64,000 bases of DNA from Vermamoeba vermiformis (lineage: Eukaryota). Each line of letters begins with the position of its first letter. Within the stretch, counting starts at the first letter, position 1. The stretch is taken from NCBI GenBank assembly GCA_045837725.1, contig JBEWZL010000079.1, positions 1 through 64,000 on the forward strand, read 5' to 3'. Shown here one piece after another: positions 342-43,278 of the stretch. The notes beneath the pieces were generated by a model. The model did no database searches. It worked only from the letters and a program-made list of their open reading frames with translations, and was not told the origin of the DNA. The translations under genes and the position numbers were made by a program.

Positions 342-3262
342 CGTAAAATTAGCAGGAACTAGATTGGATTTAGAATATTGAAACGAGTAATTATTGTTGG
401 GCTAAATAATTTTTTTAAATTGGCCCGATCAACTGGTCCGGTGGATTCAGCGCAAAAGGGATATGGAATAGTTGGTACCCTTATTCCAATCAGGCATACG
501 ATTACGTACTCCAAGAAATTATCAAATCTACCGAAGAAGAATTCACTGGGGATAACTACGTGGAGGCGTACATTACAATTGAAAAAAAACAAAACTTTTA
601 CTTCTTCTCATACAATTAGTATTCCAAATCATGATCTTGTTCAGTCAGTTGTTGTGCAGGTAGCCCGTAATTTTTAGCCAACTTATCAATGTCAATGTTG
701 TATCTCTTGGCGTTAAATGTAACCGAATTGTGTTTCTTCGGACACCAATGGCGGTACTTGTGACAAGGCAATTTCGCCTCAAAATCACCACCGCAATAAT
801 GAGTTTCGCATTGCTTGGTTTTAGAGCCATGACTATATTCAGAAAAACCAAGCATTATAATCAGAATGTCACTGAGCGTGTCAAATCCAATCAAATCGAA
901 TTCTTTTGGAATGAGCTGTTGCACATCTTCGGGCATGAATATTTTGTTTGTGCTTGGAATAGCTTCTTCGGCAGAAAAATTGGGAAATTTCGACGCAGGT
1001 GGAAAAATTATCTCGTCCTAAAACAAATTTTTGTCAAGAGAACTTAACATTACGTGCCTTAATATTGAACTCACCGCTGGCTTGATGCTAACGTAACACG
1101 TTGTTTGACCTTCTTTCTCAGCCACTGCTCCGCCATACAAACCGCCATCAATCGCCGAGTTCAAGTAGATCTCGTGCAAATAATTGATCACTAGTTTGTC
1201 TTTCAAGGGCTCGCCTTCATGTCCAATAGCTATTCTAGCACTCTTATAATGCCCAAAGGCAGGTGCACATGAGTCAATACTGAACGTAATCACGTGCAGT
1301 TGCATGTCTAAAATGACACGTGTCAACGAAAATGTCAAACATTCAATCTCATACGTACACAAGAAATTGATCTGCAATGCTAATAATTTGATCTGATTGA
1401 AGTACTCATCTCGCTTATCGCCATCATAGTTGAAAAAGTTTGACCAAGTCGAAGGGTCTCGCTTTTTTGCATCGATGATCTGCTTGCAAGTTATTATCAT
1501 GGTAGTCATTATATAGTGATGATTACCTCGTACAGAATTGTCAAGTGGTCGTATTTATATGAAAGCATTCTAATCGAATGACAGTAGTTTCCTAGGTCCG
1601 TTTCGTCGGTACTAATAATTGGATCTGCCGTACATTGTTATAAATTTGTTACTAACACAGTTGAGCTTACGTGGAATTCTCTCTTTTTTAAGAACAAAAT
1701 CCATATTCGCAAACATCATTATCAGGCAGTAGAGCTTGACCGGATCCAGCTCTGGTTCACCAAGACGTTCCAGTAAAGCCTTGGCGTCCTTCTTATGCAA
1801 CATAACGTGAAATTTTGACGATTCACTACTTTCAAAGGAGGGCACTAATATTGTATTTTTTGGAGGCTCTCCGCGAGGGGGTGCAAGACATGCTATCAAA
1901 CTTTCGTCATTACTGTCTATTAACGTTACATTATGAAATCCTCGGGCATCGTCATGCGATAAGTTCGTATACATTGCATAATTCCAGCACAATTTAATCG
2001 TTTTTGCCTGTTGATCAACGGCTGTAAATTTCAATGCTCCGTTACGAAATGATTTGTCGCCTAAATGTTCGTACGAAAGTTTTTCTAGCTGATGGACTTT
2101 CAATCGCTTGATTAATCGTTCAATAGCATCTGAATCTTTTGTAAGGTCCTTAGCTGGCCGTAAAAACGCTTTATACGTTTTTGTATTCAAATTGTTGAAT
2201 TCGTATTTTTTGAGGTCTTCATAGATCTCGCGCCAGTTCTTCAACAGGTGATTATTAAAATGAGGCTCGGCCAAATCTGAACTTTCTACGATTTTGTGTA
2301 ATATTTCTGCTTTTTCTGGAATCTAAATGAAAGGTGGTTAGCGCAAAACGCGAATGTCTCAGATGCGCACATTTTCAGTTGAAATCTTCTCTAGGATCGC
2401 TTTGTTCTGACTAATACGATATAATACAGCTATAATATACGTCAGTATTATCAATGTAATGCTAGTTAAAAACTCACAGACTTCTGGAAGGCCGTTACTC
2501 CGCAGTATATTCGTGTAAATATTCCAAGCAGCATCAATAGACTTGCAATTTATTCCTAAAAATTAAAATGGTTAGAAAATAACATTAGAAAGATTAAATG
2601 TCAACAAACAACTAAATCCGTTCGAATATTTAAAGGAAAAAATAATTACCAAATTCCACCTCCAAATAATCTCGTATGCTTCGTATTGATAAATCTCGCC
2701 AAGATTTTTGCACCAATATTGTAGTTAAATAAAATCCATCAAGCCATTTAAATACTTCTTGAACGACATCCGTCAAATAAAGCGGATTCAAGACAAGACC
2801 GGTAATAAGAGAATCGTTACTATCATTAATTGGGACTTTTTGTTTTTTTGAGCCTCCTTTAGCAAGCGTTTCGTTGGTTCCTTAAGTGGATGTCAAAACA
2901 AACACCTGATATGATGTAATATAGCTTACGCTTTCTCTTTCGTTCACTCATTGTGGTATTGGCAGTATTAAATAGAAATCTCTTCAGTGCACTTGAAGTT
3001 TTACGCGAATAAAAAGACGCCAAAATCCAATTTCAAAAAGAAACAGGAGTACCTAAAATTTCTGTCGTTTGCAAACGACATTAAAGTATATATTATGACG
3101 TAAAATTAGCAGGAACTAGAATACCTTTAGCATATTGGAACGAGCAATTATTGTTGGGCTAAATAATTATTTTAAATATGATTGGCCGATCAACTGGTCA
3201 GATCGGTTTCTTGGATTTTTTCAGCGCAAAAGAAATGTAATAGTTGATACCCGTAGTCCAAT
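342..3262 (+). repeat. Imperfect ~150-bp direct repeat (342-490 and 3099-3262)
   Basis: Both copies contain cgtaaaattagcaggaactaga...ttattgttgggctaaataatt...ccgatcaactggtc...cagcgcaaaag. Confidence 0.85.
616..2951 (-). CDS. Multi-exon F-box-like protein, copy A of an inverted pair
   Basis: ATG at 2951 (MSERKRK). ORF-track pieces 1612-2274, 1018-1509 and 616-936 join in frame through GT-AG introns. N-terminal LYLTDVVQEVFKWLDGFYLTTILVQKSWRDLS resembles an F-box. C-terminal Cys/His cluster CETHYC...CHKYRHWCPKKH. Confidence 0.7.
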
Positions 3263-3442
3263 GATTATTTCGCTCTGAGCGACCTTGGCCCGCTGTACCA
3301 AGTTTTCTCGCAATGTTGATGTAGAAACAATTTGAGACTCAAATCCAGTCCCAGATCTGTCTGTCATCATCTGTTGAATCAATACAATTGGTTTCGAAGG
3401 AAATTCGAATTTTCCGGTTCTGTTGACTGCCACAATACAACA

Positions 3443-5727
3443 ATGAGTTTACGAAAGAGAAAGCGTAAGCTATTAATTAATCGAGTATTGGATCTTACAT
3501 CCTTTCGAAGGAACCACCGAATCGCTTGTGAAAGAAGCCTCAAAAAAACAAAAAGCCTCAGTTAATGATAGTAGCGATTCGCTTATTGCCGGTCACCCCT
3601 TGAATCCGCTTCATTTTGCAGATGTCGTTAAGGAAGTATTCAAATGGCTTGATGGATTTTATTTAACTACAATATTGGTTCAAAAATCTTGGCGAGATTT
3701 ATCAATACGAAGCATACGAGATTATTTGGAGGTGGAATTTGGTAATTATTTTTCCTCAAATTACGTTAACATTTAATCTTTTCTAATATTATTTTCAAAC
3801 TATTTTAATTATAGGAATAAAATGCACATCTATTGAAGCTGCGTGGGATGTTTACAAGAAGATACTGCGGAATAATGGCCTTCCAGAAGTCGGTGCGTGT
3901 TTTTTTAACTAGCATTTCTATATACATTAATATTATTGTATATTATAGCTATATTATATCGTGTTAGTCAGAACAAAGCGATCCTAGAGAAGATTTCAAC
4001 TGAAAATGTCAGATCTGATTGCGACATCTCATTTTGCGCGCTAACAACCTTTCTTTAGATTCCAGAAAAGGAATATATATTGCAAATAATCATGCAAAGT
4101 TCAGATTTTGCCGAGCCTCAATTTAATAGTCGCCTGTTGAAGAATTGGCGCGAGATCTATGAGGACATCCAAAAATACGAATTCAACAATTTGAATACAA
4201 AAACGTATAAAACGTTTTTGCAGTCAGCTAACGACCTTATAAAAGATTCTGAGGCTATTGAAAGATTAATCAAGCGATTGAAAGTCCGTCAGCAAGACAA
4301 ACACTCGTACGAACATGTAACCGATGAAGCATTTCGTAACGGAGCATTGACATTTGCAGCCGTCGATCAACACGCTGAAACGATTAAATTGTGCTGGAAT
4401 TATGCAATGTATAAGAACTCGCGTGACGAACCCCGAGGATTTCATAATATACAGCTAATCGAAAATGACGACAGTTTCATAGCACGTTGTGCACCTCCTC
4501 GCGGAGAACTCCCCAAAAATACAATATTAGTGCCTTGCTTTGAAAGCCGGGACTCGTTAAATTTTGATGTTATGTTGTTCAAGGAGGATGCTACAGCCTT
4601 ATTAGAGCGTCTTGGTGAACCAGAGCTGGATCCGGTCAAGCTCTACTGCCTGATCATGATTTTTGCGAATATGGATTTTGTTCCTAAAAAAGAGAGAATC
4701 CCTCGTAAGTTCAAATAAGCTACTTACAAACTACTGACAATTTATGGCAGATCCAATTATTAGTACCGACGAAACGGATCTAGGAAACTACTGTCATTCG
4801 ATTAGAGTGCTTTCGTATAAATACGATAAGTTGGCAGTTCTGTACGAGGTAAACATCACTATAATGACTGTCATGATGATAATTACAAATCAGATCGTTG
4901 ATGTAAAAAAGCGAGATCCTTGGACTTGGTCAAACTTTTTCAACTATGATGGCGATAAGCGCGATGAATACTTCAATCAGATCAAACTATTAGCACTTCA
5001 GATCAATTTCTTGTGTACGTATGAGATCAATGTTGACATTTTAGTTGACACGTGTCATCTTAGACATGCAACTGCACGTGACTACGTTCAGTATTGACGC
5101 ATGTCCACCTGTCTTTGTTCATTATACGAGTGCGAGAATAGCTATTGGACATGAAGGCGAGTCCTTGAAAGACAAACTCGTGATCAATTATCAGCACGAG
5201 ATCTACTTGAACTCCGCGATTGATGGCGGAGAAGTGGCTGAGAAAGAGGGCCAAACAACGTGTTACGTTAGCATCAAGCCAGCGGTGAGTTCAGTATTCA
5301 ACACGTAATGTTAAGTTCTCTTGACAAAAAGTTGTCTTAGGACGAGCTAATTTTTCCGCCTGCGTCGAAATTTCCCATCTTTTCTGCCAAAGAAGCTATT
5401 CCAAGCACAAACAAAATATTCATGCCCGAAGATGTGCAACAGCTCATTCCAAAAGAATTCGATTTGATTGGATTTGACACGTTCAGTGACATTCTGATTA
5501 TACTCCTTGGTTTTCCTGAATATAGTCATGGCTCTAAAACCAAGCAATGCGAAACTCATTATTGCGGTGGCAATTTTGAGGCGAAATTGCCTTGTCGCAG
5601 GTACGGCCACTCGTGTCCGAAGAAACACAATTCGATTACATTTAACGCCAAGAAATACAACATTGACATTGATAAGTTGGCTAAAAATTACGGACTACCT
5701 CCTCAACTGACTGAACAAGATCAATGA
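3443..5727 (+). CDS. Multi-exon F-box-like protein, copy B of an inverted pair
   Basis: ATG at 3443 (MSLRKRK). Same intron positions as copy A and highly similar peptides (ORFs 3528, 4080, 4744, 5045, 5422). Confidence 0.7.
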
Positions 5728-5787
5728 TGATTTGGAACACTAACTGTATTTTTGCATTCAACATTAAATTATTTATGATAGATTTAT

Positions 5788-8700
5788 TTACAAGATGTTA
5801 GTTTTGTCGGTCGCGAGTCTCGGCTTCAATTTGCAGCAGAGTCCAATGATCGCTGTGAAACTTTCGCCAGTCATCGATAAGCTGTAAAAAGTTGTCATAG
5901 CGATCGCCAAACAAGTGTATACAAAGTTAATAGGCATTCTAAAGAGGTACAAGCCCAGCTCGAAGAAAAATAATGACGCGAAGAAAAACGTCAAAAAATA
6001 CCTCCAAATGTACTGCTGCAATGATTTTTGGATTTTTTCCGCTGCTGGTTGCTGCGTCAATGGCAATTGAGGTGTGATCATGCAAATCAAGTATAATGGC
6101 ATCAAGAAAAAGAACGCAAACTTGTGAATCGAGAAAAGAATTCCCGCCAAAGTCACGTGCTCGGTGTGATCATGAATGCCCAAAATAAATATCTTCGTGT
6201 CGCCGAGATCGTAGTTGCCACCCGAAATTTCGTGCAGCCAGTACGCTTGATTCATCATCAACAAAAACGCAAATTTCCTCAGATGTGGACCTGCGAACTG
6301 AACGACTTTCGTGTCCATATTCGATGCGTGCACAATCTTGCTGTATGAATTGAGCACTAGTGTACCGAAGACTAGGTAAAGCCTAACAGATTGAACAATA
6401 AGTGACAACGAAAAAATTGACAGGTGTCAAACTCAATCAATTAGACGAAATATGAAGTGCCAAAGTGTCAAAAGTGTCAAAATATGGACTGGCCGTGCTT
6501 ACCTCTCTTCGTCAGTGAACAGCACGAACAACAGCATGGTCATCGGAACAACAGCCAATCGACGCGAGACACCAGGCACGATCAACAAGACGACAGTGTG
6601 CGCGATCAGTGCAGGGTACAAGCCAATGATAATCACGCTGTGATTGGAGTCTATGTCCATGTTGCTCACCTTCCAAGTCCGGCCAATCGATTCAAACGCA
6701 AAGAAGTACGTGAATGCCATGAAGTAGATGACACGTGTCAGCTTGAAGATTGTGCCGTTCATGAACAACTCTCTTTCCGAGTTATTTTGCTGTGCTTCAA
6801 TCGCCTAAAATAGTATCGTTAGTTCCGCAATCTATTATTTCCTTAAACGTACTTGTTGATATTCTTTGAATCGTTGCCACATCCAAATGGCAAAGCCCAA
6901 ATAAAACACCAAATATGTTAATACATGCAGCGCTAACGGCCGGCCAATCTCCTTGCGGACTATAAAAGGAATTAGCCTAATTTGGTAATGAGAGATGCGA
7001 GAGTACGCGCCTTGAATGAACGAATTCGTGTAGATCGCAACAATGACACCGGCAGCTGTGCCGACAAACAGCCAATATCGAATGTTGTGCGAGGGACTCT
7101 TCACTTCATCTTCATCAATGATAGCTTTGCGTTTGATCTTCTCGCTATTACCGGTCTCCATATCATCGTCTTTGGTATTTGGAGATGTTTCTTGGTCCAT
7201 TGACGTGTTGTAAAGTGCACCAGCGACCAACAGCGCGTGAATGAATAAAAAGATTTGTCTGTTCTCGCCCCACCAGAACTCGACATTAAGCTGCTGAATA
7301 AGTTAGCCCATCATACCACGTGATTTTCCAAAATATCCGTAATGAAAAATTGTACGTACCATTGAAAAGACTACTGGGTAACCAAACACGATGAATATTG
7401 GAACGACAATCAGCCAAAATCTCGCTTTCAACATGACGCAGAATTTCTGCAAAGACCCAAACTCTAAGTTCGTGAGCGAGATGAACGTGCCGAGAGCGGC
7501 CAAGAGATAGAACGCGATTGAAAAAACAGGAATTGCGTGGAACTCTTCGAGGGCGTGTTTGAGCTGACCAAGATACTTCTTCCAAGTGCTGTCTTTCGCT
7601 GTCTTTACGTCCAAGTTGTGTTCGTCTTCAGGACCAAATCGACTGACAGTCGAGCCGAGTCTCACGCCTAAATGTTTGGCGTTCTGAATGAGTTGAAATG
7701 ACACGTGTCTGTACAAATTGATGCGCTCTGAAAGTGACTCTGAAGCAGCATAAGCCATGCCGTTAGATTCAGCGGGAATGCTCGCTGCTCGGACGTATTG
7801 CGTCAGCGTGCCAGCGACGTCAACAGTGTCGAGCCAGACCTCTTGAGGGAGAGGTTTCAGCTTCGGGTTGTACATCATCATGAAGGCTTCGTTGCCGTTG
7901 TCCGATGTCCCGTGAGTACTGTCAAAAGCAAGTTAATCGCTGGTTATACGACAACGGCTTATCTTTTGAATGAAATTTTAAAGACATATGGCAAGTTGTT
8001 ACCTTAAAATGTCGTCATCTGGCCACGCGCCACCATGATCGCTCATAACGACCAAAAGGTACTCGGGGTTTTCATCGATCCAGCGCTGCACAATGCGCAT
8101 GTCTTCGTTGAACTGGTTGATAATTTCAACGGTATGCGAATCATATTTGCTATGATTGTATGGGTTAGATTGGGTCCGAAGTCGAATTTCCAAATTAGGA
8201 AATACTTACTCCATCGTCTTGTGGTTAAATTTGTCCACGATTTGGGTCGTGATCAGAGCACTTTTCGAGTCAGATCTGAACTTGTTCAGTTGACTGTAGG
8301 CTGATTCTTTGCTGACAGCAGCACCCTTATTAGGACCAAATAAGGAATAAAACGCTCGTTCATGAACAGTGTCTTCTTCAACACGAGTTATTCCGCTCCA
8401 AAGTTGTGTTCTTTCGCGCATCAAATCGTAGAATGCTTCACCGTCCGTTTGCCCGTAGTAATGAATAGGAACGCCTAATGAAATAGCTTGATTAATATTT
8501 TTACTATATTTGGTAATAATAGTGCGATGTGAACCTGCAGTTTTGAACTGGCTAATGAAGTTGTCGCACTCAACTGGAGCGCCCATGACATTAGTAGCCG
8601 GCTTGCCAGTTAGGTACGAAGTTACGACACCATATGTTGATTGAAAGGGGATATTGTATATATGATACAAGTGCGATGAAGCCTGGTGTAACGAAGATCC

Positions 8701-15663: not shown

Positions 15664-16318
15664 ATAATAAATAGTCCAAACTTAACGAAACGCAAAAATC
15701 CGTACGTTAGATCAAATTTTCGATTTTTGAAGAACAGCACATCTTACTGATGTTGGGACAGCGTTCTTTATTTTGGTAAGTTCTTTGGTGTTGTCTTTGT
15801 AATGAGAAACGCGGATATAATTTTTGATTAGTACCTGATCGGTAATAGTTAATTCTAATCTTGTCATACCGCATTAAAAAAACCAGAAAAAACATAAAAA
15901 ATTTCTTAACACGCACCTAAATATAATTGCTTCCAAATATCATAATCAAACGGTTCTTCTTTGAGATCCGGATAATCGCCTAACTTTAATTTTCCAAAGG
16001 TTATTCATGATTGATTTGCTTATTTTTGGCCCCAAAATCACGTCATAAGCCAAAATTTTCGATGGCAATGCAATAGAACAATTTCCATCGGAGTACGGAT
16101 CTGCTCCGCACTGACTTCTTTCTACTGAGGTCTTATGTTAACTTAGAGAAGGGCCCAACTCTGTTGCCACCACATACATCTGACACTTCTCTTCATTCTG
16201 CAAAGCGTAAAAACTTGGGGACACAACTTTGGTCCGATCAGTCCGAAAGATTCTGTCAGGACGACTTAAAAGCGCAGAATATTAAGGTTGTTTTCCAATT
16301 AATTAACAACTAACAACG

Positions 16319-17764
16319 ATGTCTCTCTCGAGCATTTTGGCGCTTGTTATCTTAACGAGTCTCGCATCTGTTAGCTTTGCTCAAACCAAGCACTACGTCC
16401 TCGCATCTGCTACCGGCAACGGAAATGGAAACGATTGGACCAACGCATATCAAACACTTCCTGCTACTTTAGTTCGTGGAGACATTTACTACGTTGGCTC
16501 CGGTCAATACCCCAGTTTGACGCTAAACGATGCAGAATCTGGTTCAGAGTGGATTACTATTCAAAAAGCTACTGCCAACGACCACGGCACTGATGTTGGA
16601 TGGAGCGATGAATATGGTACTGGCAATGCAAGTTTTCCCACAATCACTGTCGCCTCGTCGTACTACAATTTCAACGGATCTGTTGGCGGCGGTCCTGGAT
16701 CGTGGTTCACGGGCCATGGTTTTGACGTCTATTCAACTGGAAATGTCGGCCAAGCCCTCGTCTTCTTCAATGCTGACGTGCATCACATAATGTTGAGTCA
16801 CACCAGTGTACATGCGGATCGAGACACGCTAACTGCTGCCATGAAACTGACCTTAGGCGGCAATCACGACATTACTGTCAGCTACTGCGCGGGCTACAGC
16901 GTGTTTGGCGTCTTCTTCCACCTCGCTAACGTCTACAACATGGTCGTAGAGTTCTCATACTTCAAAGACAACAAGAGCACAGCAGACTGGCACAGCGAAG
17001 GTATATCGTTCCTAGGCACAGTCACCAACTTGATCGTTCGTCACTGCGTCTGGTGGAAAATTGAAGGCTCGGCGTTCTTGGCAGGTGTCAACAACGGCGA
17101 CGCGTATAACTGGACTGTCCACGGCAACATCTTTTCGAACTCTTGGAGCCCTGCGCTGTATATTGCTGATGACGGAGGGTCCATGAGCGGTCTCCAATAC
17201 TACAACAACTTGATTACCAACGTCAACACTTCATCTGGTGGCATCTACATTTCAAAAGGCTCAGACAACAAAGTCTACAACAACATGTGGTATCATAACG
17301 TAGTCAACTCTTTGTCTATCTGGGCTGACGCAGACTACAACTGGTTCTACGACAACTATCGCATTGACGGTTGTGCTCCCATCTGCGACTTGAACCCTGA
17401 TGCTGTTGCTGCTGAAACGCACGGTGTCGCTGGTACTGGCAATCCGTTCGTGAATTGGGATGGCTTGGCTGATCCTACTACGAGCTCAGTTGACTTTCGT
17501 TTGAAGGAACACACCGCGCCTGGTCTCGACGTAGGCGCTCCGTTCAATGTTGACATGTTTGGCACAGAGCGATTATCAGCACAATGGGATCGTGGTGCCA
17601 CACAATTCACCGTTCCCGTGCCTGTTTCTCCCGTGTCTGCTCCTGCTTCATCACCTCAATCGATGGCACCGAAGACTCTCAGCTCACCAACCGCGAACTT
17701 ATCCAGCAATGGAGTGGCGCTTGGTGCTTCATTGTTTGGTTGGGTACTCGCTTCTCTTATGTAA
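16319..17764 (+). CDS. Intronless secreted, probably GPI-anchored, right-handed beta-helix (pectin-lyase-like) protein
   Basis: 481-aa ORF with signal peptide, Asn-rich beta-helix-like repeats, DFRL...DMFGTER...WDRGA motif, Ser/Pro linker and hydrophobic tail. Confidence 0.75.
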   Translation: MSLSSILALVILTSLASVSFAQTKHYVLASATGNGNGNDWTNAYQTLPATLVRGDIYYVGSGQYPSLTLNDAESGSEWITIQKATANDHGTDVGWSDEYGTGNASFPTITVASSYYNFNGSVGGGPGSWFTGHGFDVYSTGNVGQALVFFNADVHHIMLSHTSVHADRDTLTAAMKLTLGGNHDITVSYCAGYSVFGVFFHLANVYNMVVEFSYFKDNKSTADWHSEGISFLGTVTNLIVRHCVWWKIEGSAFLAGVNNGDAYNWTVHGNIFSNSWSPALYIADDGGSMSGLQYYNNLITNVNTSSGGIYISKGSDNKVYNNMWYHNVVNSLSIWADADYNWFYDNYRIDGCAPICDLNPDAVAAETHGVAGTGNPFVNWDGLADPTTSSVDFRLKEHTAPGLDVGAPFNVDMFGTERLSAQWDRGATQFTVPVPVSPVSAPASSPQSMAPKTLSSPTANLSSNGVALGASLFGWVLASLM

Positions 17765-18239
17765 GAATTGATAAATAAACTTCCTTATTTTAGTGCGTCG
17801 ATTTTTCTGAAGACAACGACACTCTAGTAGACTTGTCAGTATAATATTGAATTTTTTAAGTTAATGTAAGTACTAGAATCGATTAATGATCTCTTCCTAA
17901 TTCCGCGTACGCGTAAGTTAGCGGCGCAAACTTGACGGCGGGTGATTGGCTGTCGGGTGACATTTTGTGACAAGAACATCGGTTATTTTCATAGTTTGAC
18001 ATTATACCTTAACAGTGAACCACGAATGAAGAGTATCACTGTGTTCGTCTTCGTTCTTCTTGCAGCGTCAAGCAGTTGCACAACGCCACCAACATATCCC
18101 TTTTCAGCCGGCCAATGTTTTTAGATAAAAATTATACAAAAATTCAGGACCGTTGATTTTTGGTAATCGCCAGAAGAGACTGTAGTACAAAAAAAGGTAC
18201 AATTTTGTTGGGTGATGTCCATTGACAGTGCGCCACACC

Positions 18240-18700
18240 CCTGAGTAGATCCGGATCGGCCCCAGATCCGATCCACTTCCCCCAGCTCATTTCTTTGTAT
18301 TATTAATAAAAAATGATTAATCACAATACAATACTTGGTTGAGCAAGCACATGTATTCATAGGGAGGAATTTGGCCGGGCCCTAACCCATCCAAGTGTCG
18401 AAGTCACGTTGAGGTGACTGACACGACCAAAACCATGTGATTCATCAATAGAAAGGTCGCAGGCATCAAGGCGACACCCCTCCATAAAGGAGACCGTACA
18501 ACAAAAGAGTGTCCGCTACGGCAAGTGACAAGTCACTTTCTAGCCCATCCAACTCAGTGCCAGTGAGAGTGCTGTTCCGAACCAGTGGTGTTGCCGAGGC
18601 AACACGACCTCCAGACCATACTCTGACCCACATCGTCGAGAATCAGCGCGTAACTTTCTCATTGTAGCGGCGCTAAGGCTTCACCCTTAGACGCCGGATG
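18240..18700. other. Hairpin-dense non-coding tract inside the transposon (candidate structured RNA)
   Basis: At least seven closely spaced stem-loops and no long ORF. Confidence 0.45.
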
Positions 18701-18751
18701 TATTACAAACAGTATTTATTATACTACCTACAGCAAGTTTGTTAACAAATT

Positions 18752-21700
18752 CTATAGTTTAAGCTTACGACAAACGGGTTTGTGTGTGTTCTTACAAGTA
18801 CTGCACAGAAAAATTGGTCTTTTTTTGTCGGAGCTGCATTTCCAACATACTGTGCTAATTTGCTTTCGTTTACGTGGGTTGCACGTTAGGCAAAAACCAT
18901 TGACTCGTCTTTCAAAGACATCTTCGCTCTGAACTCGCACATGAGAAGAGAGACTTTTTGATTTCAGATCTTTTGCGACAATTATTCTTCGGGTTCTGAG
19001 AGATCTGTGTCTAGTTAACGGAGATGCATTTTTCTTGTTGCGTGCAGACTGCTCTTGACTAAGTTCATCCTTTAAAATTTGCAAGAAATCTCGAAATTGA
19101 TCTTCGTCATTGTTCTGAACTTTCTTATAGTAGCGATAGCACTGGTATGAATTCCAAGTGATTATATTTATAATATTTTCCCATACTACTTGTGTCCATT
19201 TTGTTAATCTGAACGGCCAATCAAACGTATGAATTTGTCTTGCCGCCTCGTCGACAAATCCTTTGGTCTTTGTGTATTCTTGGACAATAAGTGGCTTTGT
19301 ACTCTGCATTTACAACTAAATTAGTAACTTAATGACGCAAGCATAAGAAGCTTACTGCAGTCGACGGTACTCCTTGACACAGATCTGTTGCGGCTGATGA
19401 CGCTGCAATGAAATTAGATAAACACTTTGATTAATATTGAACTAACCATCGACGTAATTGGAATAGAGATTCATAATTGCATTGTTATCGCGGAAAGAGT
19501 GAGCAATAATCGGACCAGCAGTGCCTTCTTTTTCAAACGTCAAGTGTTGCCCTGGTTCTTGTAGAGGATTTTGCAAAGTACCAAATATATATGAAGGAGC
19601 ATTTTTCTTTGCCGACAACAAGAATTTAATGCCTTGTTCATCCAAAATAGTAGCCGTCTCTTCCGCACCCCATTTGCTATCTGTTATAATCACGTGGCCA
19701 GGCTTGTGATTGTTCAATTTCTCGGCTAGCTCTAACAGCTGATATTTAGGAGGCAGACATAGACCCAAGAATATATCGAAGTCCCAAATGTAGTAAGATT
19801 CATCGGCGGCCAAGTAGAGTAAGACACCGTTTGGATGTGGCTTGCTTGGAATGAATTGCTGAGTTACGTTAGTTAAAATGTATTATCTAACGATAACAAG
19901 TACTTACTCGGGCATAAAAGCGGCCCAAAAACGGCAAGATGGTTTCATCAAAGGTAATTTTTTGAGATGGAGACCAATTTTTTTGGCATCGTTGAGCTAC
20001 TTCTTGAGTAACTTTGTCAATATCAAAGTGGAAATAATGCATAATCTGTTCGAATCGATCTCGGCCCATTTTTGACGATATCCATTCGTTGCCATACAAG
20101 GGATCTTTGATAGTCCAGTAATCTCTGAGGCGACGACCTTTAACACAACGACTTGCGATCCCAATGGCAATGAATATATCAAATTCTGGCAGCGTAAGTG
20201 GTTTCCAATTTGTTCTTTGCTTTTGAAAAGTAACTTTGTCTTCTTCGGAAGGTTCAAACTCGGTACTAAAATATTCTTCCAAATGCTTTACGTTTGAAAC
20301 CCAACTTGGTACCGTTAGCAATCCTAATTGTGATCAGAATGTTTGTTTTCTCGTTAGCTTATGTAATATTTACCTTTGTATTTTTGTTGCATTTTCTCGG
20401 CCCAAAGTTTGAGCTGTGCAGTTTTGTTCAAACGCCATGTTTTTCGTTCTTGCATAACTTCAGAAAATGAAAGACTGGCATAACGGTTTATATCTTCGAC
20501 CATCTGTAAACGGGTTTGCTCTGCGGTATTCATTAATTCTGAGAATATTCAACGCTCGAATGAATGATACGTACCAGGCAAAAAGCGCGAAAAGATGCTA
20601 GTGTTGGTCATAGGCTGCTTATTGGTGGGCCCGCTATCCAACGTACAAAAGGAGGTACGAACAAAACCTTTACTTGTTTTATCTCGTATTTGCCAACCTT
20701 GATTGGATAGTGCATGCGGAGATTGGAAGTACTTATTCATTATTAATAGTGCATTTGCCCGAATGTCCGACTCGCATATCCAATTTGTTTGCACCTTCTT
20801 ATTTTTCCAATCGATGAGCCATTCCCATAGATCCTAGCCAAAATAAGACAACCATTCGATTATCTCGCATACATACATTATGGAAGCGTACTTTGTAAAT
20901 GCACTTGATTTGCTCAAGAGCTATTTTGCTTCCCGGTGCCACTTTATCCACCATAAGGAGATCGTCGGTTACAGCCTTAACAACAATATGCGAGTCTGGC
21001 AGCTGCCACTCCTTATCTATCGAAGGTGTCTGAAGCTTTGGTTGGCCTTTTTCCAATTGCTTGGGTTCTTAACGGTGCATTAGAATTAAATTAGCCGCGT
21101 TGCACTTACTTTTTTTAGGAGGAGCAATTAAGTTGTCTTCTGTTTCCAACAGGTCGCAAGCGACACTGATTTTACGTTTCCTTGTTTGCATCGTACAGGA
21201 AGCAGGAACGGCAGTCTTCAACGGAAATTGAATGCCGACTTCGGCTTGTTTAATGTAAACCACTGCACTGGCGGAGCGAACACCACCGCTTAACTGCGAA
21301 AGAATAGCAACACGCTCCTACTTGACATTTAGTCCGAGATCGCTTGTTGGAAAAAACATACCCGTGTAACTTTAGCATCATTATAATTGTTCCAATGTAA
21401 AGCACAGCGTTCGTTGACAACAACTCCATAATGTCCATTATTGCGAGTTTTTCCATCGTGCCAAATTACACCATAAAGTAGGTACAAAGTTCCTTCAAAG
21501 TGAACGGATGTTTCGATTGTCAAACGTCGAACTTGCTTGTGTTCATCGAGCTCGGAGAAACGATTGATTCGAATCAATAACAGTTTTGGGTGGTTCAACA
21601 CCTGTTTGCGTAATTGGCAATCCTTTTTATCATTAGATCGAGTACTTCGTTAACAAACATTGATAATAATTACCTTTGCTTGATATTCTACCACTTCCGG

Positions 21701-22628
21701 AGCAAAAAAATCGTCAATTCCTTGTTGAACACTCTGAACGGATGGCTTGAAGTAGATGTCGATCCCTGTACTACATTAGTTATGTGTCGCAAAAACAATA
21801 CGTACAGTTGATCTGCTCCACTCTTCCGTCGTTCACTTGGGTAGAATTTTCATCAAATATCGCCGTACTGAATTGGATAGCTAGTTCTCGCCGCGAATCT
21901 ACCAAATTTAACAAATCTTGTAACAATAGGGTAGCGTCTTGTTGTCCAGCTTGCACAATTGTTCGTACATTAGAATTGATAGCGAGAGTAGTTGCTAGTC
22001 TTTCAAACAGAACTGCAGCATCGACCGGTTGGCTTTGTTCAATGAATTTGAGTAAATACTCGTTGACTAGCATTGCAATCTCGGTAGTTGACTGTTCAAA
22101 CAGTTGCCGTAGACACGGGACCTTTGCAATAAGTACCAAGCATACGTGCAGAAAACAACGAACACTTGGGTTAACAAACCCAAATTTAAACAGCGGAGAC
22201 TATCGCAGAAAATTAGGATTACACTGCACAAGATTATTATTCTTACCTCAAATTCAAATGGATATAATTGTATCTTTCCTATCTTATGCGAAGTAAAATT
22301 GCCTCTATTTTTTGGCTGGCTGTAAATTTGTTAGCACAGAAGACAGATCGACCGTCGAATTTTCTTACTTTAAAATGTTATTAATGATCGCAATAAATTC
22401 ATCTTTTGCTATATTGCCGTGATATGCTTCGTAGACCCAGTGAATGTCGCCCATTGAGAGACCACGCTCATTTGTTTCGTGGAAGTGGATCAACGACTGC
22501 ATGACATTTGGAGAAGCTATAAAACGTTGTAGATCGGTGTCTGAAGATACGACACATTAAAAATAAATTTTTAATAGCGCAAATAACATAGCCTTACCCG
22601 AAAAGACACGAACAAGCGACATCTGCAT
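18752..22628 (-). CDS. USP deubiquitinase - chromodomain - piggyBac transposase fusion (~1,100 aa, 13 predicted introns)
   Basis: USP boxes GFVNPSVRCFLH, GQQDA, HDGKTRNNGHY, WNNYNDAKV. Chromo-like IKCIYKVRFHN/DLWEWLIDWKNKKVQTNWICESDI. Transposase TFDET, QFIPSKPHPNG, ITDSKW, GFVDE and Cys-rich tail. All GT-AG joins checked stay in frame. Confidence 0.8.
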
Positions 22629-22876
22629 CCAAAAAAAATAGTACCTTAGTATTGGCTAAAAAATGTAGTAAATTACTCTAGAACGTCCAAATTTAATTGA
22701 GATTTTCGCCGTTTAGGTAAAATAAAAAATATGAAAATTCGATGACAAATTAGGATCGGGTTCATTTACCCTACTGAAGGCCGGCAATTGGTGGTATCTT
22801 GCAACAACATAAGCATCGAACTGGTTCAAAACAGAAAATGGCGAATTACTGCAGAAAAAGCACGTGAGTATTTATT

Positions 22877-25703
22877 TCAAGGAATTCCATCGAGATCACT
22901 CAGCTGGTTGAAAGCGGCAATGAATGCATTGGGATCGAACTCAGGAACTTCAAAAAGTCCAAGCGAGCAAAGCAACACTTCATAATGGAGCTGTAGGTAC
23001 TGTAGCACCAGATCCAGTGGCTGCTCGCCAAATATTGTCGCCATAGCAAGCCCGCCTGCGTCACTTAACTCTAACTCATCCACGACACCGGCAACTCGTT
23101 GGTACAATTCGCAAACTTGGACCAGCAATGGATCTGCGAAACTCAGTGTCAACAAAGTGCATGATAAAAATGACTCCTCTTACTGATCGTTGGTACTGAA
23201 TGAGCCAAGGGGTGTTCGCGTAGGAATTTATGACGATTGAATAGCTCAAATGTGTAGAACGGCTCGACGGAGAATTCAGTGTATGCATCCAGGTTCACTC
23301 GACGAACAAACCACGTGCCTAATGAATCATTACACAAATTGACACAGTGCGAAAGTTGCTTACCGATGAATTGGAAGACATCTTCTTGATATTCAACCGC
23401 AATTTCGAGAGGAAGACAGTGATAACAATTGAGCCGCACCATGTCATTCCTTGCTGAATCTGCCCCGCGATTGACGACAAATGAGCCATCAATCATCGTG
23501 CCGCCCGCCCCACCAACTGTTATAACCCCCTCGCGCCAATTACTCCAATTATTACCAGGGAAATTTTTCCGAAGTAACATCGACGTACAACCTGGAGTGA
23601 ATTAATCCATCGCGCCGTTTAATTTGCAGAATTGGAATTACCTATTTGACTGAGGCCATTAAAGGAGGAGTCTATTGTTAAGCCACCAGTAAATTCTGCT
23701 TTGGCCAAATCGAACTTGGAATACAGCTCCCCAACCTGAGCTTTCGTTATTTTGATTGAAGTGATTAAACGTCAAGATTGTCACTTACTTTAAGATGTTT
23801 TCTCGGGCCGAAGATACATGATTTACCAACGGCACATTCATGCAACTGCTCGATGAGCAAAACTTTGCAAGACGCACAATACAACAGTTGATTGTTGTGC
23901 AAAAGCAAGTGAGCAAACGCCCAACAACCTCCGGTGGGGAAAAATATATCAATCAAAGGCTTAATAGGTTCCGTATTCCGAGCCAGTCCACTGCGCGAGA
24001 GTTTTCGTTTCTTGGCATTTGTCGAAGGCCGCAGTGCTCGCCTCCACTGCATTAGCTTTTGTTTGTTGGTTGTCCAGGTCGACAAAGAATAACCAAGAGT
24101 TGTATTTGCCTCTATAAAATAATTAGTGGAAGTACAGACCAAATATTAACAGCTTACCACAGTTGCGTTTCTCGGACTCGTAAATGTTTACATCTACATT
24201 ACGAATTGTCGCCACCCAACGTATAAATCTGGAATATACACCGACTACTCGATGTTTCAAGTATGATTGCATTCGTTTTGGTTGTAAAAGCATCATATTG
24301 TCCACGAGCGGAATGTCAACATCCCCTAAGCACAATGCATTAGAAATTAATTGTTGCGTAAACGGTAACGCACTCACGAGTCCCAGTCTGCGAACGCTCC
24401 TGCACCACAAAGCGCCACCCCGGTGGGGCATCACAGTTAGCCACCAATTCATCTGGATCTACGAAACCAGAGACCGTAAACACAACAACGTCTCTTGCAT
24501 TGCCCAAGTACTTGTCATCTAATTGATAAAATAAATACAAATGCAATAACAATAGTTTGTTGCGTACTATCAGCATGCGATCCCATGGCGGGGAATACTT
24601 CTCGGTTATTTGCCCGAGCTAGTTCTATGTCATCCTCCGATAAAGGCGGATAGGCAGTAAACATTACACAAGTTGAGTGACTGCAAAAGTAGCCAAAGTC
24701 GCGTAGTTTTCGGAATAGTAGCTGGATGCACTCGGGTGTTTGATTCGTAGAATCACGGTAGAAATTGCTTCATAGTAGTTGTTAGAATAAATAAAATTGA
24801 TATATTGAATCATACTTATAGGAGATACCGGTGCCTGTATTTCCGTACACTGCATACAGCCGTTTGGTAACTGCAGTCAACCGTTCATTGATCTTGCCCT
24901 CTGGTGAGAACAAAATGTCTTGGAACAGCGAGGATTTAAAGGATGAGTATTCAGACTCGTCAAAAAACTGGTGATAGACCAGAATATCAACGCCGAAAGC
25001 TGAGACCATTTCCGTAGCCCTGTGTCACGAGATCATTATAATTAACCCCACTGACGGTAATCTTACTTACGCAGGTAATTCAGTATGCGTACTCTCCTCA
25101 ATCAATTGTTCAAAGCAAGTAATAGGCTCGGAGTCAATAAAGGCGGTATCATTAAGGGTGTCGTAGATCGGTGAATCTAAAATTGTGACATTAGATTTAA
25201 TTGCTCAATACTATTTATCGATAAATACTTACCAATTTCAATTGGTTTTGTACAAATCAGGCTGCAGTTCCAAGTTAAAGAGTAGAACCGCTCTAAAACG
25301 CCATCTGAATTTTTCACCTTCAAATCGCCAGCAATTATCTGCTTTACGAACTCCTCAAGCTTGCCGTAGGGCATTGTAATATTGGGCTCCTCTGCTAAAA
25401 GGGTCGAGATTACCGCCCTAAAAACTAGCCGTTACTAATTAAGTTAATTTAATTAATTAAAATTTTAATTTACGCAACAAATTCCCAAAACTAATAAGAA
25501 ATAAATACGTACCTTAGAGGAATATTTTTCTTATTTTCTGGATCAATTTTGAATAAACGCCGAAAGGCTGCACCAACGATCTTGTTTTGGCTGGTGGCGG
25601 ACAAGCTAACCACCCTATAGTCATGGCGGACGCTAGACCGGTCAACAGAATTGTCCGGTCCGCATTCCACAACTCTAGTGTGCACATGTGTTGTCGCCTC
25701 CAT
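22877..25703 (-). CDS. Transposon cargo gene with an AlkB-family (ALKBH2/3-like) 2OG-Fe(II) dioxygenase domain plus uncharacterised flanking domains
   Basis: Spliced peptide YHQFFDESE...KRLYAVYGNTG..ISY...MGSHADNDKYLG...IPL...MQSYLKHRV...RWVATIR matches the HxD...H...RxxxxxR signature. Followed by AKKRKL and CASC...HEC. Confidence 0.75.
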
Positions 25704-27545
25704 CCAGAAACAGATAAATGGAAAAATTCGGGACTGTATTTTTGTCTACAAGATTTTACTCATACACACAACGATGGGTATAAATAATTCAACGTTGCGT
25801 ATGCCAAATTATGGAAAACACCATCTTACAACGGCAGATTTAGTGATCCTCACCCGATCTCCGCACCACCCTTCGCCATAAATTACTGTAAGCTTAGAAT
25901 AATTAAAATACCCTACCAAAAAATCAATGTTGCTAATAACCCGCTAAAATAATTGTCCCTTCAATATTTATAAATTTTTTTTCGTGCGCCGGGATCAAAG
26001 GGATATTATCAAGTCAGCCACAGCGCACACACGTTCAACGACACCAATATGCTCTATTATGGCTCATCAAGTGTTACGTCGGAACAATATGTATTAGGAG
26101 TGCCATCAGAGCCGTTCAGTGTTGGATTGGTGCTGCATCCGGAAAAAGTTCCCGCTCATAATGGCTTCTTTCTTCAATTTGACTGGAAACCTTCGAATTG
26201 CGCGCCTGGAAACTCATTTAATACCTCACTAAGAGCTGATGGGTAATTGAAGTTCGATTAGTTCAAAGATCTAATTTTAGTTTTAGATTCGCAATTGTTT
26301 TTCTGAAAGACTTGCCCACGAATGAGCAAGTAGAACAATCTATTGGTACTCTTGGTATTGGAAGAGTACCGAATACATATTCATTCGGCTATGTATCAAC
26401 TTACAATGAGTTTTACGTTTGTCGTTGGTGAGTGTTGTCGGATTCGGTTCGAACAAAAGGCTTATCTTTCTCTGTAATAGGAATGATCCCTTGCCGATAG
26501 TGCAAAAACCGGGAATACTCCGCAAAGTGTGTCAAGTGTTTCCTTATTCTGATTTCCCAATGACTTGTGGCGATGCTTGGCATTTTGACCTTGTTCTCGA
26601 ATACAATCAGCTCTCAGTAAGTGATTATAACTGCCATAAGACTAGTTTATTTAATCGATATTGTTTAGTGGATTGGCGACGGTGGCGTGATATATTCAAT
26701 TCCGTTTGAAATGGATCCCGTTGATTATTTCATTGGACTGAGTTTCGGAAACGATAATTATTACCAACAACAAGAATTAATAGAAGCCATGTATTACCAC
26801 GTTGAGAAGACAACACAATTCGATGTAATTGAATCGAATTTAACCGGAGACTTCAGATTTTGCGGATCTGCCGAACCTCTCGAACAATCGATTAAACTGA
26901 TTAACAATGGAGATAATGAATACGGACTGGCAATCCTCGTATCCGCGTAAGAGTGCTCAACTATTATTTCAGTACCGAACCTAATTTACTAATTTGACAC
27001 GTGTCACTCAGATTCTCTTTCTTCTTTTCTTCTCGTGACATGCCAGATTGTGTCCCGCACGACAACTTAAGACTTGATGGCACCGGGTTCCCCCGCATTG
27101 ATGCTTTTGCTTATTCCGCGTACGATCAAAAGTTCTACATTTGCGATTGGTTAGTAGCGCCATCGACAACAACATGATATTCAACTTAGTTTAATAGGAA
27201 CGGACCCAATCAGACCACTCCTTGTACGCCTGTTCTGGCTGTGAGCAGAGGGTTCATTCATTGCGAATCAACTTACAACTTCATTTTATACTTTCAAAAC
27301 GGCGTACTCAACGTAAGTACTGTTTCTTCAGAATAGTAGCGATCTTGTGCAAGCTAATCTTACTGACCGTTTAGGTGTACCTCAACGACGCTCCGTTTTT
27401 TACTGCCAATCTCAACTTTGAAGAGGAAGCTTATTACGCTGGATTCGCGGCCAGCTCTGGCAACATTGATCGCCATTGCCGCCAGGTCATCTCCAATTGG
27501 ACGATGAACACTGACTTGAGTTCAGTGAATCTCACCGAGTATCTC

Positions 27546-39746: not shown

Positions 39747-40465
39747 TGTTGTATTGTGTGTGGGAGGTGATTGAATTAAATTGAAAATAAAATCTTTTGA
39801 CATTTGTAGGTGCCCTGGTTCATCACGTGCTAGATATGATCAAGATACGACGCCGTTTATTATTGATATGCCGTGAGTTAGTGTACAACAGCTGGGCTCT
39901 AAATATGACGCAATCTTCGGATGTCAAATCTCATCGTGTGTTGACAAAAAAGATATTTTTATAAGCTGAAAATCATTGTCCTATAAACACGCCTATCCCA
40001 GTAAGTAATATTTATTCGACAATTATCGATTTAATATTAATTAAATACTAAATTACCTTTACCGCCTTTTCATCTCGATCGAAATTCAAATTCCCTAATC
40101 TTTCATTTCGATAATAAGTAAATTCCTCCATAATTTTTATCCACGTCCATATCGTAGATTATTCACATTCGTCAAGACTAGAACGTGAATTATTCCGAGC
40201 GCAACCTCAGTTTCTCGTGATCTGCTTCTCACGACAGCCCTTTCATTGTAGATTGACTACGTCAGTTGTGTTCATGAACAATAAGGATAAAGAAGTCTGA
40301 GAGTGTGAGTTTCAGCCGGCTTTCCATTTTTTTGATCGGTTTTCATGAACGGTCAGAGAAAAAATCAAAATTGATCGCGTCTTTTGGTCATTTTATAATA
40401 GTTTTGCTACTCTAGCAACACAAAAGACATAGTATTTTATTATATACATTTTTAATTGTTCTACA

Positions 40466-41661
40466 ATGGCCGACAGCGAAGATCAAAACACTGAGCAATG
40501 GCTCAAGAGTACCTTGCTTAGCCACGCGTTGCCCGGCGTATTTCTTAAAGGAAAATCAGTTGTTAGCGTCAGTAGAAACGATCCTATCGCCAAAGCCTTC
40601 AAGCTCATGGTCGAACACAAAATCCACTCAGTAGCCGTCTTCGATCCGACGTCCAAGAAGTATAGAGCATTCCTCGATATTCTTGACATCTTATGTCACG
40701 CTATGAACACCTTCCACTTGGCCGAGCTGGAGAGATCTTTTTCGATGATCTCGGTGCACGACCACTTCAGCAAGCACACGTGCGGCGAGCTCGCTAATAT
40801 CTCTGAACGATCGGCTTATTTGCAAGTTAATGACGACGTGTCTCTTTGGGACATTTTGGAGTTCTTCGTTGTTGCTGATGCAGTTCAAAGGTACCATCCC
40901 GTTTAATGAAACGTTTAGAGGAATACTTTTTCGAGTTTATCATCCTCATGCTACCATACTAATATTGTCTATTGTAGAGTAGCAGTAGTTACTAAAAAAG
41001 AAGAGATTGTTGGCGTCTGCTCTCGTCTGCGCCTGATCCACTTTTTCTCGCCTCATATTCTCAAATTCAGCATTGCTCGTAAATCGATCCAAGACATCAA
41101 GCTCGTAAGTATACCACTAATAGTAATCTTTCATATGAAGAAGTTCAATCAATCAAGATCTCGGAAATTTGACAAATTGACACGATCAAGTTTCGTTCAC
41201 TGAACGCGGTGACAAAGTGTCGGATCACAGTATTAATAATATAATGGTAGGGCATCAAGAAGGTGATTACAGTGAAGGCTAATTCAGCGGTCTCAGAGGC
41301 ATTCAAGCTGATCCGCGATCAAGGTTTGAACAGTGTGGGCGTGGTTCATGAAGACAATGGACAATTGATCGGAAATATCTCCGCGTCGGATCTCAAAGTC
41401 GTAGGTCTTACCGGCGAGCTCTTTGGTAGAATGCTCTTATCTTGCCGTCAATACTTGACCTTGATCCCGTCGAACCCGAACTTCACTTACCCGATCAGCG
41501 TGAATACGTCAACTACCGTTGAAGAATTGATCAAAAAGTTTGATATTGCTCATGTGCATCGCATCTACGTGGTTGATAATCAGCAAATGCCTGTTGGTAT
41601 TGTCAGTGTTTACGACGTGCTGAAGGCTCTCAAGGAAGACGTTGAAACTATGGACAAATAG
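40466..41661 (+). CDS. CBS-domain protein (AMPK-gamma/SDS23-like)
   Basis: Four CBS-like repeats (AFKLMVEHKIHSVAV, GNISASDLK, HVHRIYVVD...GIVSVYDVL). Confidence 0.85.
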
Positions 41662-41923
41662 TGCTGCTAATTACGATGTTTTAGCTGGTGTAGGATATTA
41701 ACGTTGCATGTAAATAATATAAAGACGATTGAGTATTGTCATATCTGGCCATTTACTTCGTTAACTTCAAAGTAGGTCCACAGTGCGATCCAGGCTCTGA
41801 AAGTGTTCAGTCCTCTTTCTTCATTTGGAGCCGTGAAGCGTGCTGGGTTTTACTGGCGATAATTTGGTCGCTGTTGCCAACCTATCATTTAGGGACGGAT
41901 CTCGAGTGTATCAACGTGGTTCC

Positions 41924-43067
41924 TTAATCCAAATACTTCTTTAATATCGAATAGTCCTTTGTATAGTGATAGAATAGTTGATCTTCGTCATATTTATATT
42001 CTTGGCCAATCGCAATGGCGTCTCTGAGCGCGATCCATTTCATGTACGGTTCGTGATCTTAAGTAGGTTCAAATAAGTTACAAAATTGACATATAAGAAT
42101 GTAAATATAGTACCTGATTCATCTTGCGAAGCGTACATTGCCTCCGAGAGCATCTACAATCAAATAATTATTAAAAAATAAATGACAAAAAATAAAATAA
42201 TTGGCAATTTGTATTAATGACGACCGGCGCCAAATTCTAATATGATAAAATATATTGCATAGATTAAAATACCTTTTCTAATAATTCAGTTTGCTGAGCC
42301 ACGGGATCTTGGAGATCAACAAACTCTTCATCTTTTGGCCCATCTGTATCAACTACAACGACAGCTCTGTTCGAAATAGTTAGTTAATGTCTTATAATAT
42401 TAATATTTTATTACCTTAGCGCGAACCACGGTCCATAAACTGGATGAATGCTCAAATGGATCGGATGCAGGTAAGCTAATCCGGAAACATGGCTTATTTT
42501 CTGCATGGAAACTAGTCTACCTAATTAAAAATATTAATTAAGCACGTTCACTATTTAAGCACGTCTATTAAACGTACCTTTTCGAACTTCATTAGCATAG
42601 CGGATGTCATGAACGAGTTTCTCCCGTTCTAATAACGGTTTAAATATTGAGTCGATGGTGTCTTTTGTATATACATCTATAGGATGTGGAGAGTCTTGCA
42701 GTTTCTTATTTGACTTGTATTGAGCGACGAACGGGGTCCAAAAGTGTTTTGTATTTCCGATCAAGATCCCCAATGTGTTGGATCGATTAAAAGTAGGCAG
42801 TTTGTGGTCTACATGGACTGTTTCATTATACCTATGTTGTGACAGAATTTTAGACCGCGTCCTCTGGTAGAACGTAATTTTTGAGATTTGGATTTGCAAT
42901 ACTGGGTGTATTTTAACGATGGAATTAATAAATATTTATTCAAATATATTCGTATATTATTGTGCACGTGTAGAAAGTTTAACTAACCATTTAACTTGAA
43001 AGGGCTTGATGAGATCAAATCCCTTGTCTTTCAACGTGCTCGTAACAGTGCTTAATATCTTGTTCAT
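41924..43067 (-). CDS. MMACHC: Cobalamin-processing CblC/MMACHC-like protein
   Basis: GFDLIKPFQVKWY, LIGNTKHFWTPF, HPID, MQKISHVSGLAY, IHPVYGPWFALRAVV. Confidence 0.8.
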
Positions 43068-43278
43068 ATTTAATATAATATATATTGTACTTTTATGGTA
43101 CTTTGTGCTGGTTACGGAGTCGCACGGACAAAAATAGTTCGTTGAACGTCTGCATTTTCCCAATTTTCGCCCACAATGAACAATATCACGGGTGCTGCTA
43201 ATTTTTTGCGAGGTAAATTCCATCAGACTAAAGAGAATTTGCCTGGCGTTATTCGCGATGTATTCGAGCAAGACTCTT

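Follow-up and report, generated by a model that had tools for sequence, protein, structure and literature searches.

A predicted conserved RNA structure, assigned to no known family, at the right end of unusual piggyBac elements from Vermamoeba vermiformis

A dense run of hairpins in Vermamoeba vermiformis DNA lies in the right end of a 7.9-kb piggyBac-like element (18098-26002) with ATAT target duplications. The stretch analysed, here called the window, comprises 64,000 nucleotides of contig JBEWZL010000079.1 (assembly GCA_045837725.1); coordinates are window positions, and W denotes the element copy in the window. Sequence comparisons with related elements indicate that the hairpin tract is a real conserved RNA structure of no known family, carried by an unusual piggyBac clade, and that it very probably works in some form as RNA on the minus strand, which is also the strand of the transposase gene. 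We give slightly less than an even chance to the narrower proposal that a discrete, non-polyadenylated RNA is cut from a read-through transcript of RNA polymerase II (Pol II), for which transcription, both processing steps and stability are jointly inferred.

An earlier note on the window, made from its letters alone, had proposed an element-encoded structured RNA in this place. All eight hairpins that it listed are present (the first requires base 18274), and the doubled word CCCATCCAA occurs within the whole window only at 18386 and 18544. The note was also correct that the tract is richer in GC than its surroundings (0.50 in 18240-18700 and 0.53 in 18361-18699, compared with 0.39 and 0.37 in the flanks), that it holds no long open reading frame (no stop-to-stop frame of at least 100 amino acids overlaps it), and that it lies beyond the transposase AATAAA, which appears as TTTATT 32 nucleotides beyond the transposase stop. 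The folding check against shuffled sequences that it called for yields -145.9 kcal/mol (z -4.51) for the plus strand of 18240-18700 and -167 kcal/mol (z -3.49) for the minus strand, and none of 100 shuffles folds as well on either strand. Folding of 120-nt windows gives a patchy signal, with a best z of about -3.3 in the tract and a few windows elsewhere at -3 to -4.5. The first listed hairpin does exist (18253-18274), but it belongs to a block of GATC repeats that lies outside the predicted RNA.

Element limits were set by aligning stretches of the host genome, a DNA search of which gave 10 matches, to the window. Further full-length copies on contigs C126 and C99 are 99.9-100% identical to the W element, the copy on C291 is identical as far as the contig end, and the copy on C73 is cut at 18351; a 554-bp copy on C221 was excluded from all counts because it has many small deletions and a flank in common with the C200 copy. 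The target duplication is ATAT, not TTAA, at every insertion end with a visible flank, and the element appears from these copies to have been recently mobile. A search with a transposase exon returned nine matches, comprising five W-family copies, three sister families (C3, C18 and C19; 40-46% transposase identity to W and the same gene order) and one distant element (C215), which was set aside for its more distant transposase and lack of cargo matches. A fifth family (52% transposase identity) is present on a metagenome contig, L068. Two families without protein genes complete the set: NA200 (1.57 kb, four loci), which retains 18097-18699 at 93.5% identity together with about 37 nucleotides of the other end, and NA83, which is related to C19.

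The seven ends compared are therefore those of five autonomous families (W, C3, C18, C19 and L068) and two gene-less ones. All seven carry a tract of 298-355 nucleotides (to CUCCC) and 48-54% GC in the same place, between the 3' end of the transposase gene, or an unrelated leader, and a point 217-264 nucleotides from the terminus. DNA searches found the tract solely in element copies, and a search with the terminal 12-mer revealed no new family. Similarity between NA200 and W stops 3 nucleotides past the last hairpin, and the two differ at 12 of 339 tract positions compared with 27 of 263 terminal positions; the difference count for the C73 copy was ignored because its alignment is out of register. 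That two independent gene-less families keep the tract after losing all protein genes points to a role in cis and names no partner, and its better conservation in NA200 than that of DNA nearer the terminus likewise suggests a benefit in cis. Between the C19 and NA83 sequences (L043 and L055), similarity is about 97% over the terminus and 3' domain, but the 5' half of the tract is strongly diverged, which suggests recombination between subfamilies inside the RNA. The gene-less families (L018 604-1540; L055 2110-2920) also hold 800-950 nucleotides of unique sequence with splice-like words and no match to the autonomous elements, which may be a non-coding leader transcript.

Because the helices of the earlier note were set before any homologue was known, they provide a fair covariation test. 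In L068, 14 of their pairs are unchanged, 21 are changed and 16 are gapped; pairing is kept for 15 of the changed pairs on the minus strand and for 10 on the plus strand, and 11 changes are two-sided. The corresponding counts in NA200 are four of five changed pairs on the minus strand and one on the plus strand. Consensus folding of W, NA200 and L068 with RNAalifold favors the minus strand (-82.6, with a covariation term of -3.17) over the plus strand (-60.2, +3.36), as does folding of C19 with NA83 (-63.0 versus -53.8), and the W/L068 pair scores z -5.2 on minus and -3.4 on plus against a column-shuffled null. Whole-tract z values are lower on minus than on plus in all seven ends and fall below -2.5 in five of them (-2.8 to -5.8). 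Compensatory changes and G-U wobbles place the fold on the minus strand; the hairpins reported in the note are real, but the structure belongs to the transposase strand. Two incidental ideas were dropped: coding conservation of a short word common to C18 and C19 is broken by stops, and a telomerase-template role for CCCTAACCC fails in that the word occurs only in W, NA200 and L068.

The predicted RNA begins with a hairpin, and the first 43 nucleotides of all seven tracts fold into one (-9.6 to -18.6 kcal/mol). In W this helix (18668-18696) is fully paired (100%) in the three sequences aligned, with four two-sided changes among its 11 pairs, and in the hairpin at 18588-18605 four of seven pairs are changed on both sides across three sequences. 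Near the other end, a 3' domain common to W, NA200, L068 and C3 has 96.7% of cells paired over 15 pairs, with three two-sided changes. Its helix P1 (18370-76 with 18425-31) encloses P2 (18395-18424) and P3 (18377-79 with 18386-88), and the P3 loop (18380-84) could pair with the tail (18360-64) as a pseudoknot.

Signals that resemble RNA processing sites flank the tract. AATAAA stands 15-23 nucleotides ahead of the first helix in six of the seven ends, including both gene-less families, and L068 has TATAAA at -22; the same word is found anywhere in 29 of 209 AT-rich 45-mers. This spacing is the usual distance from a poly(A) signal to the cleavage site. On the other side, the host U1 and U2 genes close with CCTCC-like words, after which come first an A-rich block and then one rich in G (GATC is also present after some of these flanks), and a profile built from eight such flanks scores 10.3-18.5 on the transposase strand in all seven ends, 183-211 nucleotides from the terminus. 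Only 18 of 1276 background windows and none of nine Pol III-type flanks reach 10.3. A profile trained on U1 alone gives 13.6-16.4 for held-out U2 flanks, 11.1-20.1 for the seven ends and at most 0.9 for the nine Pol III-type flanks, and 12 of 1276 background windows reach 11.1. The U1/U2 promoter profile finds no match upstream of the tracts on either strand (at most 7.3, compared with 19-40 in the training set). Among the host's own small nuclear RNA (snRNA) genes, divergent U2-like genes on L065-L067 (C202, C49) have a U6-type promoter (TCCC..AA plus TATA) and a T-run end and are found in addition to canonical U2 genes, whose promoter and 3' flank differ, and divergent U6-like genes on L060 and L061 (C289, C163) are altered in the 5' stem and 3' end.

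The strand, the covariation and the signals on both flanks are most simply explained by a discrete cut-out RNA. The tract would then correspond to an RNA of about 300-380 nucleotides from the transposase strand, made at the right end of an ATAT-targeting piggyBac clade without a promoter of its own. Pol II would read through the transposase gene, or through the non-coding leader in gene-less derivatives, and cleavage after AAUAAA would yield the mRNA and a downstream piece with the first hairpin as its 5' end. The fold would resist 5'-to-3' decay, and the host U1/U2-type signal would form a 3' end that is not polyadenylated, placed after the CUCCC tail or after the optional hairpin that follows it. 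Such an RNA would most likely act in cis to the benefit of the copy that makes it. It might do so while nascent, by scaffolding the deubiquitinase-transposase or the AlkB-like protein that the element is predicted to encode, although this scaffold role is a guess that we think unlikely to be right.

Several observations weigh against this reading. Covariation was found, as the earlier note had asked, but within three to four related sequences. Six changed pairs are broken in L068, and 14 pairs fall in gaps from a deletion there that removes three of the hairpins present in W at 18456-18521. The two best helices (18588-18605 and 18668-18696), with eight two-sided changes in 18 pairs and none of 500 shuffles as high, were both selected after the alignment had been inspected. 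Seven of 500 shuffles score as high as the 3' domain, whose P1 and pseudoknot pairs were drawn from the same sequences on which they were scored; the five pseudoknot pairs include one two-sided change, and a competing helix uses the same 3' tail. Taken whole, the C19 and NA83 tracts are no more stable than shuffled sequences (z -0.9 and -0.2, respectively). The short 3'-domain model, run on 17 sources and liable to miss more diverged copies, finds W, C73, L068 and C3, and not C19, NA83 or C18, which leaves position and layout as the grounds for homology between the two groups; judged by eye, the latter three tracts end in a similar stem plus CUCCCC.

The flanking evidence is qualified in similar ways. 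When the profile is trained on U2 alone, the scores of W, NA200 and C18 drop to 8.4-8.9, which their reverse strands equal and which 39 of 1276 background windows match. The U1/U2 3'-flank signal is also scored at 13.1 in one left end, and the near-fixed distance of the 3' motif from the terminus also fits a DNA-level or terminator role. A 170-bp miniature element (L049 1413-1590, C253; single copy) with C3-type ends and both ATAT duplications lacks the tract. Finally, among four RNA runs, of six listed, that were compared with the element, no contig or read covers the tract, in data too shallow for a real test. Three runs gave one short contig each, inside the transposase at a depth of 2-6, and the raw-read run, which does not contain the organism, gave 0 reads; at this depth, absence of tract reads neither shows nor excludes the RNA. 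The note's proposal of an element-encoded structured RNA is supported by the position kept in seven element ends, the compensatory changes, the strand asymmetry and the flanking processing-like signals, with transcription itself a prediction; its suggestion that the RNA is a partner or substrate of the cargo proteins is neither favored nor disfavored by these data.

A rather unlikely but serious alternative is that the tract is a cis element of a long 3' untranslated region (UTR). The hairpin after AAUAAA would weaken that site, some transposase mRNA would end at the distal A-rich/G-rich signal, and the fold would control stability, export or translation of the mRNA. The same strand and the same covariation would be expected, the distal signal includes AATAAA in C3, C19 and NA83, and structured 3' stability elements are known in transposase mRNAs (PMC7583470). 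However, the two gene-less families retain the tract and the upstream AATAAA with no reading frame to regulate, the distal motif, unlike the usual end of an mRNA, seldom occurs in background windows, and no U-rich loop is conserved.

We consider it distinctly improbable that the tract is a termination or pausing device, in which the nascent fold and the G-rich box would stop Pol II before the terminus and the host flank and leave no stable RNA. The box lies 183-211 nucleotides from the end in all seven cases, a benefit in cis would account for retention in the derivatives, and no transcript was seen in the shallow RNA data. Host U1 and U2 genes, however, use such a box without a 300-nt multi-branched fold, and a conserved junction with a pseudoknot option probably exceeds what termination needs.

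It is very unlikely that the transcript is processed by a self-cleaving ribozyme, of a class not yet described, located in the 3' domain. The compact junction, the possible loop-tail pseudoknot and a compensatory A-U to G-C change would suit one, but there is no Rfam ribozyme match down to E 10 and no invariant catalytic-looking core common to both groups; manual mapping of the hepatitis delta virus, twister, pistol and hammerhead layouts showed their core residues to be absent. Still less credible is a plus-strand RNA antisense to the transposase, for which a DUSE-like CCCA element of the terminus would set the start close to GGGAG at 18362. C-rich CCCA words do lie upstream on that strand, the host has DUSE-like snRNA promoters (its U6 genes carry TCCC..AA at about -65 and TATA at about -30), and the plus strand of W folds at z -4.5, but the spacing varies from about 41 to 90 nucleotides between families, the promoter profile reaches at most 4.2 on plus, and the wobble and covariation asymmetry favors minus. 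A passenger, either a captured host non-coding gene with its 3' box or a chance structure kept near the terminus, would explain the host-type 3' signal, and derivatives often retain terminal DNA, but it is highly unlikely given that the tract is found by DNA search in element copies only, is better conserved than DNA nearer the terminus and changes in a compensatory manner.

Table 1. Features of the W element and its right end, in window coordinates
Feature	Position	Strand	Evidence or remark
ATAT target-site duplication, right side	18094..18097		flanks this end in W and in copies on C291, C126, C99 and C238
Right terminus and subterminal DNA, minus strand ending ...GGG	18098..18245	-	identity among copies stops here
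GATC/GGATCT repeat block with first hairpin; outside predicted RNA	18246..18275	-	similar repeats here in all families
A-rich block followed by G-rich block, similar to the 3' flanks of host U1/U2 genes (like a 3' box or terminator)	18265..18310	-	profile score 14.3
Optional 3' hairpin with G-U pairs on minus	18325..18357	-	folds in W, NA200 and L068
3' domain: P1, P2, P3, possible pseudoknot	18360..18431	-	15 pairs in 4 sequences
Variable middle including long arm capped by hairpin 18588-18605	18432..18667	-	pair changes in 3 sequences
5' hairpin, first helix of predicted RNA	18668..18696	-	11 pairs in 3 sequences
AATAAA poly(A) signal of transposase gene	18715..18720	-	distance to first helix across 7 ends
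Predicted fusion of ubiquitin-specific-protease domain and piggyBac transposase, 1090 amino acids, 13 predicted introns	18752..22628	-	PF00443 and PF13843 exon matches
Multi-exon cargo gene, putative AlkB-like 2-oxoglutarate-Fe(II) dioxygenase domain, start codon inferred	22877..25703	-	motifs, structural model
Left terminus (end 26002) and ATAT duplication 26003-26006	25966..26006	-	copy comparison

Two intron-rich genes lie on the minus strand of the element (Table 1). The transposase domain PF13843 (DDE_Tnp_1_7) is matched in three exons by Pfam (E 6e-17, 6e-8 and 3e-4), and with donors picked by hand these exons join those of PF00443 in a single open spliced frame; the intron at 19859-19907 agrees with the loose end of an RNA contig. 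The deubiquitinase domain, which has Cys, His and Asn/Asp motifs, is apparently fused in frame to the transposase, and exon order is alike in the sister families. A protein search for longer relatives of a transposase exon found none.

In the cargo gene, HxD, H and RxxxxxR-type motifs are invariant across four families, and an Atlas lead points to PF13532 (score 0.75); the protein also has a Cys-rich segment and a C-terminal region that matches no assigned domain. A full-length homologue, P0154, carries the database label Vermamoeba vermiformis and comes from a transcriptome-derived protein set. The top three structural matches to its low-confidence model (mean predicted local distance difference test, pLDDT, of 50) are AlkB-family proteins, namely ALKBH3, AlkB and an entry grouped with ALKBH2 structures (Z 5.4-5.9, root-mean-square deviation 3.7-3.9 over 129-132 residues); a single-sequence fold has pLDDT 33. 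No Pfam or PDB sequence match was obtained, Foldseek gave no match at E<=0.001, and BLAST against E. coli AlkB was not significant. We regard the cargo protein as AlkB-like with moderate confidence, on the basis of motifs and modelling. An SRA-like C-terminus suggested by eye was dropped for lack of Atlas support. Pfam searches of 20 frames and full-length P0154 found no TnpB/Fanzor family match, and viral contigs gave 0 matches for the transposase alignment, AlkB or the RNA motif.

Other features were noted around these elements. Beside the W insertion, 16307-17764 on the plus strand encodes an intronless 485-amino-acid frame for a secreted-looking beta-helix protein (PF13229), possibly of bacterial origin. 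Elsewhere in the window, 610-5750 is a large inverted duplication with arms 78-95% alike. The C18 transposase gene (L040/L042, C18 ~40460-46280) is split by an insertion of about 6 kb with inverted ends and internal tandem repeats. On L075/L076 (C236, C163), a segment of at least 5.7 kb is duplicated at 99.97% and shares GGATCTG repeats with the C3 family end; L076 around 7460-7790 holds an 80-nt hairpin with CCTCCC ahead of the word AAATAAAAC, possibly another element family.

The Rfam/Infernal check proposed in the note returned no family for the tract: nowhere in the window does an Rfam 15 family reach its gathering threshold, the best match within 18050-18800 has E 1.1, seven loci yield nothing at E<=1, the L068 tract has no match, and ARAGORN found 0 tRNA genes in six loci. 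To our knowledge, structured RNAs of eukaryotic DNA transposons have been described either as Fanzor guides or as stability elements of mRNAs; the tract fits neither class. It resembles Fanzor/TnpB omega-RNA in being a structured right-end RNA region on the strand of the upstream open reading frame, in a transposon with extra genes, but no TnpB/Fanzor match exists here and the genes read as dioxygenase-like and protease-transposase. Whereas omega-RNA abuts the element end, the tract ends 217-264 nucleotides inside the element, before a terminator-like motif, so that no guide runs into the flank. Flavivirus exoribonuclease-resistant RNAs leave subgenomic RNAs of 300-500 structured nucleotides after 5'-to-3' decay, by means of a three-way junction in which a loop forms pairs with the tail downstream of it. 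A comparable topology is possible for the junction predicted here, and the proposed origin is similar, but the junction lies at the 3' end of the tract rather than the 5' end, and Rfam gives no match. Host U1 and U2 genes share the CCTCC-like end and the A-rich then G-rich flank, but they have a CCACAA-type promoter at about -60, which the tract lacks, and the tract has no Rfam snRNA match.

The ENE and double-ENE of transposase mRNAs (PMC7583470) are likewise conserved 3' RNA structures in DNA-transposon transcripts. An ENE requires a U-rich internal loop upstream of the poly(A) tail, whereas the tract lies past the proximal AATAAA; where L068 has a run rich in U, C3 is rich in A, and no U-rich loop is kept among W, L068 and C3. 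Dictyostelid Class I RNAs (PMC7919456) are preceded by a DUSE at a distance of about 60 nucleotides; their terminal stem carries an 11-nt motif, and many have a T-run. They too are structured amoebozoan non-coding RNAs, and the host has a DUSE-like promoter, but the tract is longer, lies inside a transposon and lacks a promoter. With the piggyBac superfamily, as described in PMC5381638, the element shares the PF13843 transposase, a C-terminal Cys-rich region, CCC...GGG termini and a 4-nt duplication; it differs in the ATAT duplication (there a rare alternative to TTAA), very short imperfect inverted repeats, 13 predicted introns, the protease fusion, the AlkB-like cargo and the RNA tract. There is a precedent for additional genes in piggyBac elements, namely a DEDDh nuclease (PMC3627910). 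Literature searched at the level of titles and abstracts, a scope that leaves Repbase and most subscription papers outside, holds no description of this RNA or clade; ATAT elements may be listed in supplement S2 of PMC5381638, which lies outside that literature.

If the tract yields a discrete RNA, it would represent a new biogenesis route, in which poly(A) cleavage sets the 5' end and an snRNA-type box the 3' end. It would also offer a testable example of a piggyBac element that employs an RNA alongside cargo able to modify chromatin or nucleic acids. A more ambitious proposal, quite doubtful at present, is that an snRNA-like RNA scaffolds or targets the AlkB-like demethylase and the deubiquitinase-transposase to the copies that make it. 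If true, this would be an RNA-directed module for anti-silencing and mobilisation without a Fanzor nuclease, which gene-less derivatives would exploit by keeping the RNA unit alone. With its ATAT targets, protease-fused transposase, AlkB-like gene and identical recent copies, the clade may still be active in Vermamoeba vermiformis.
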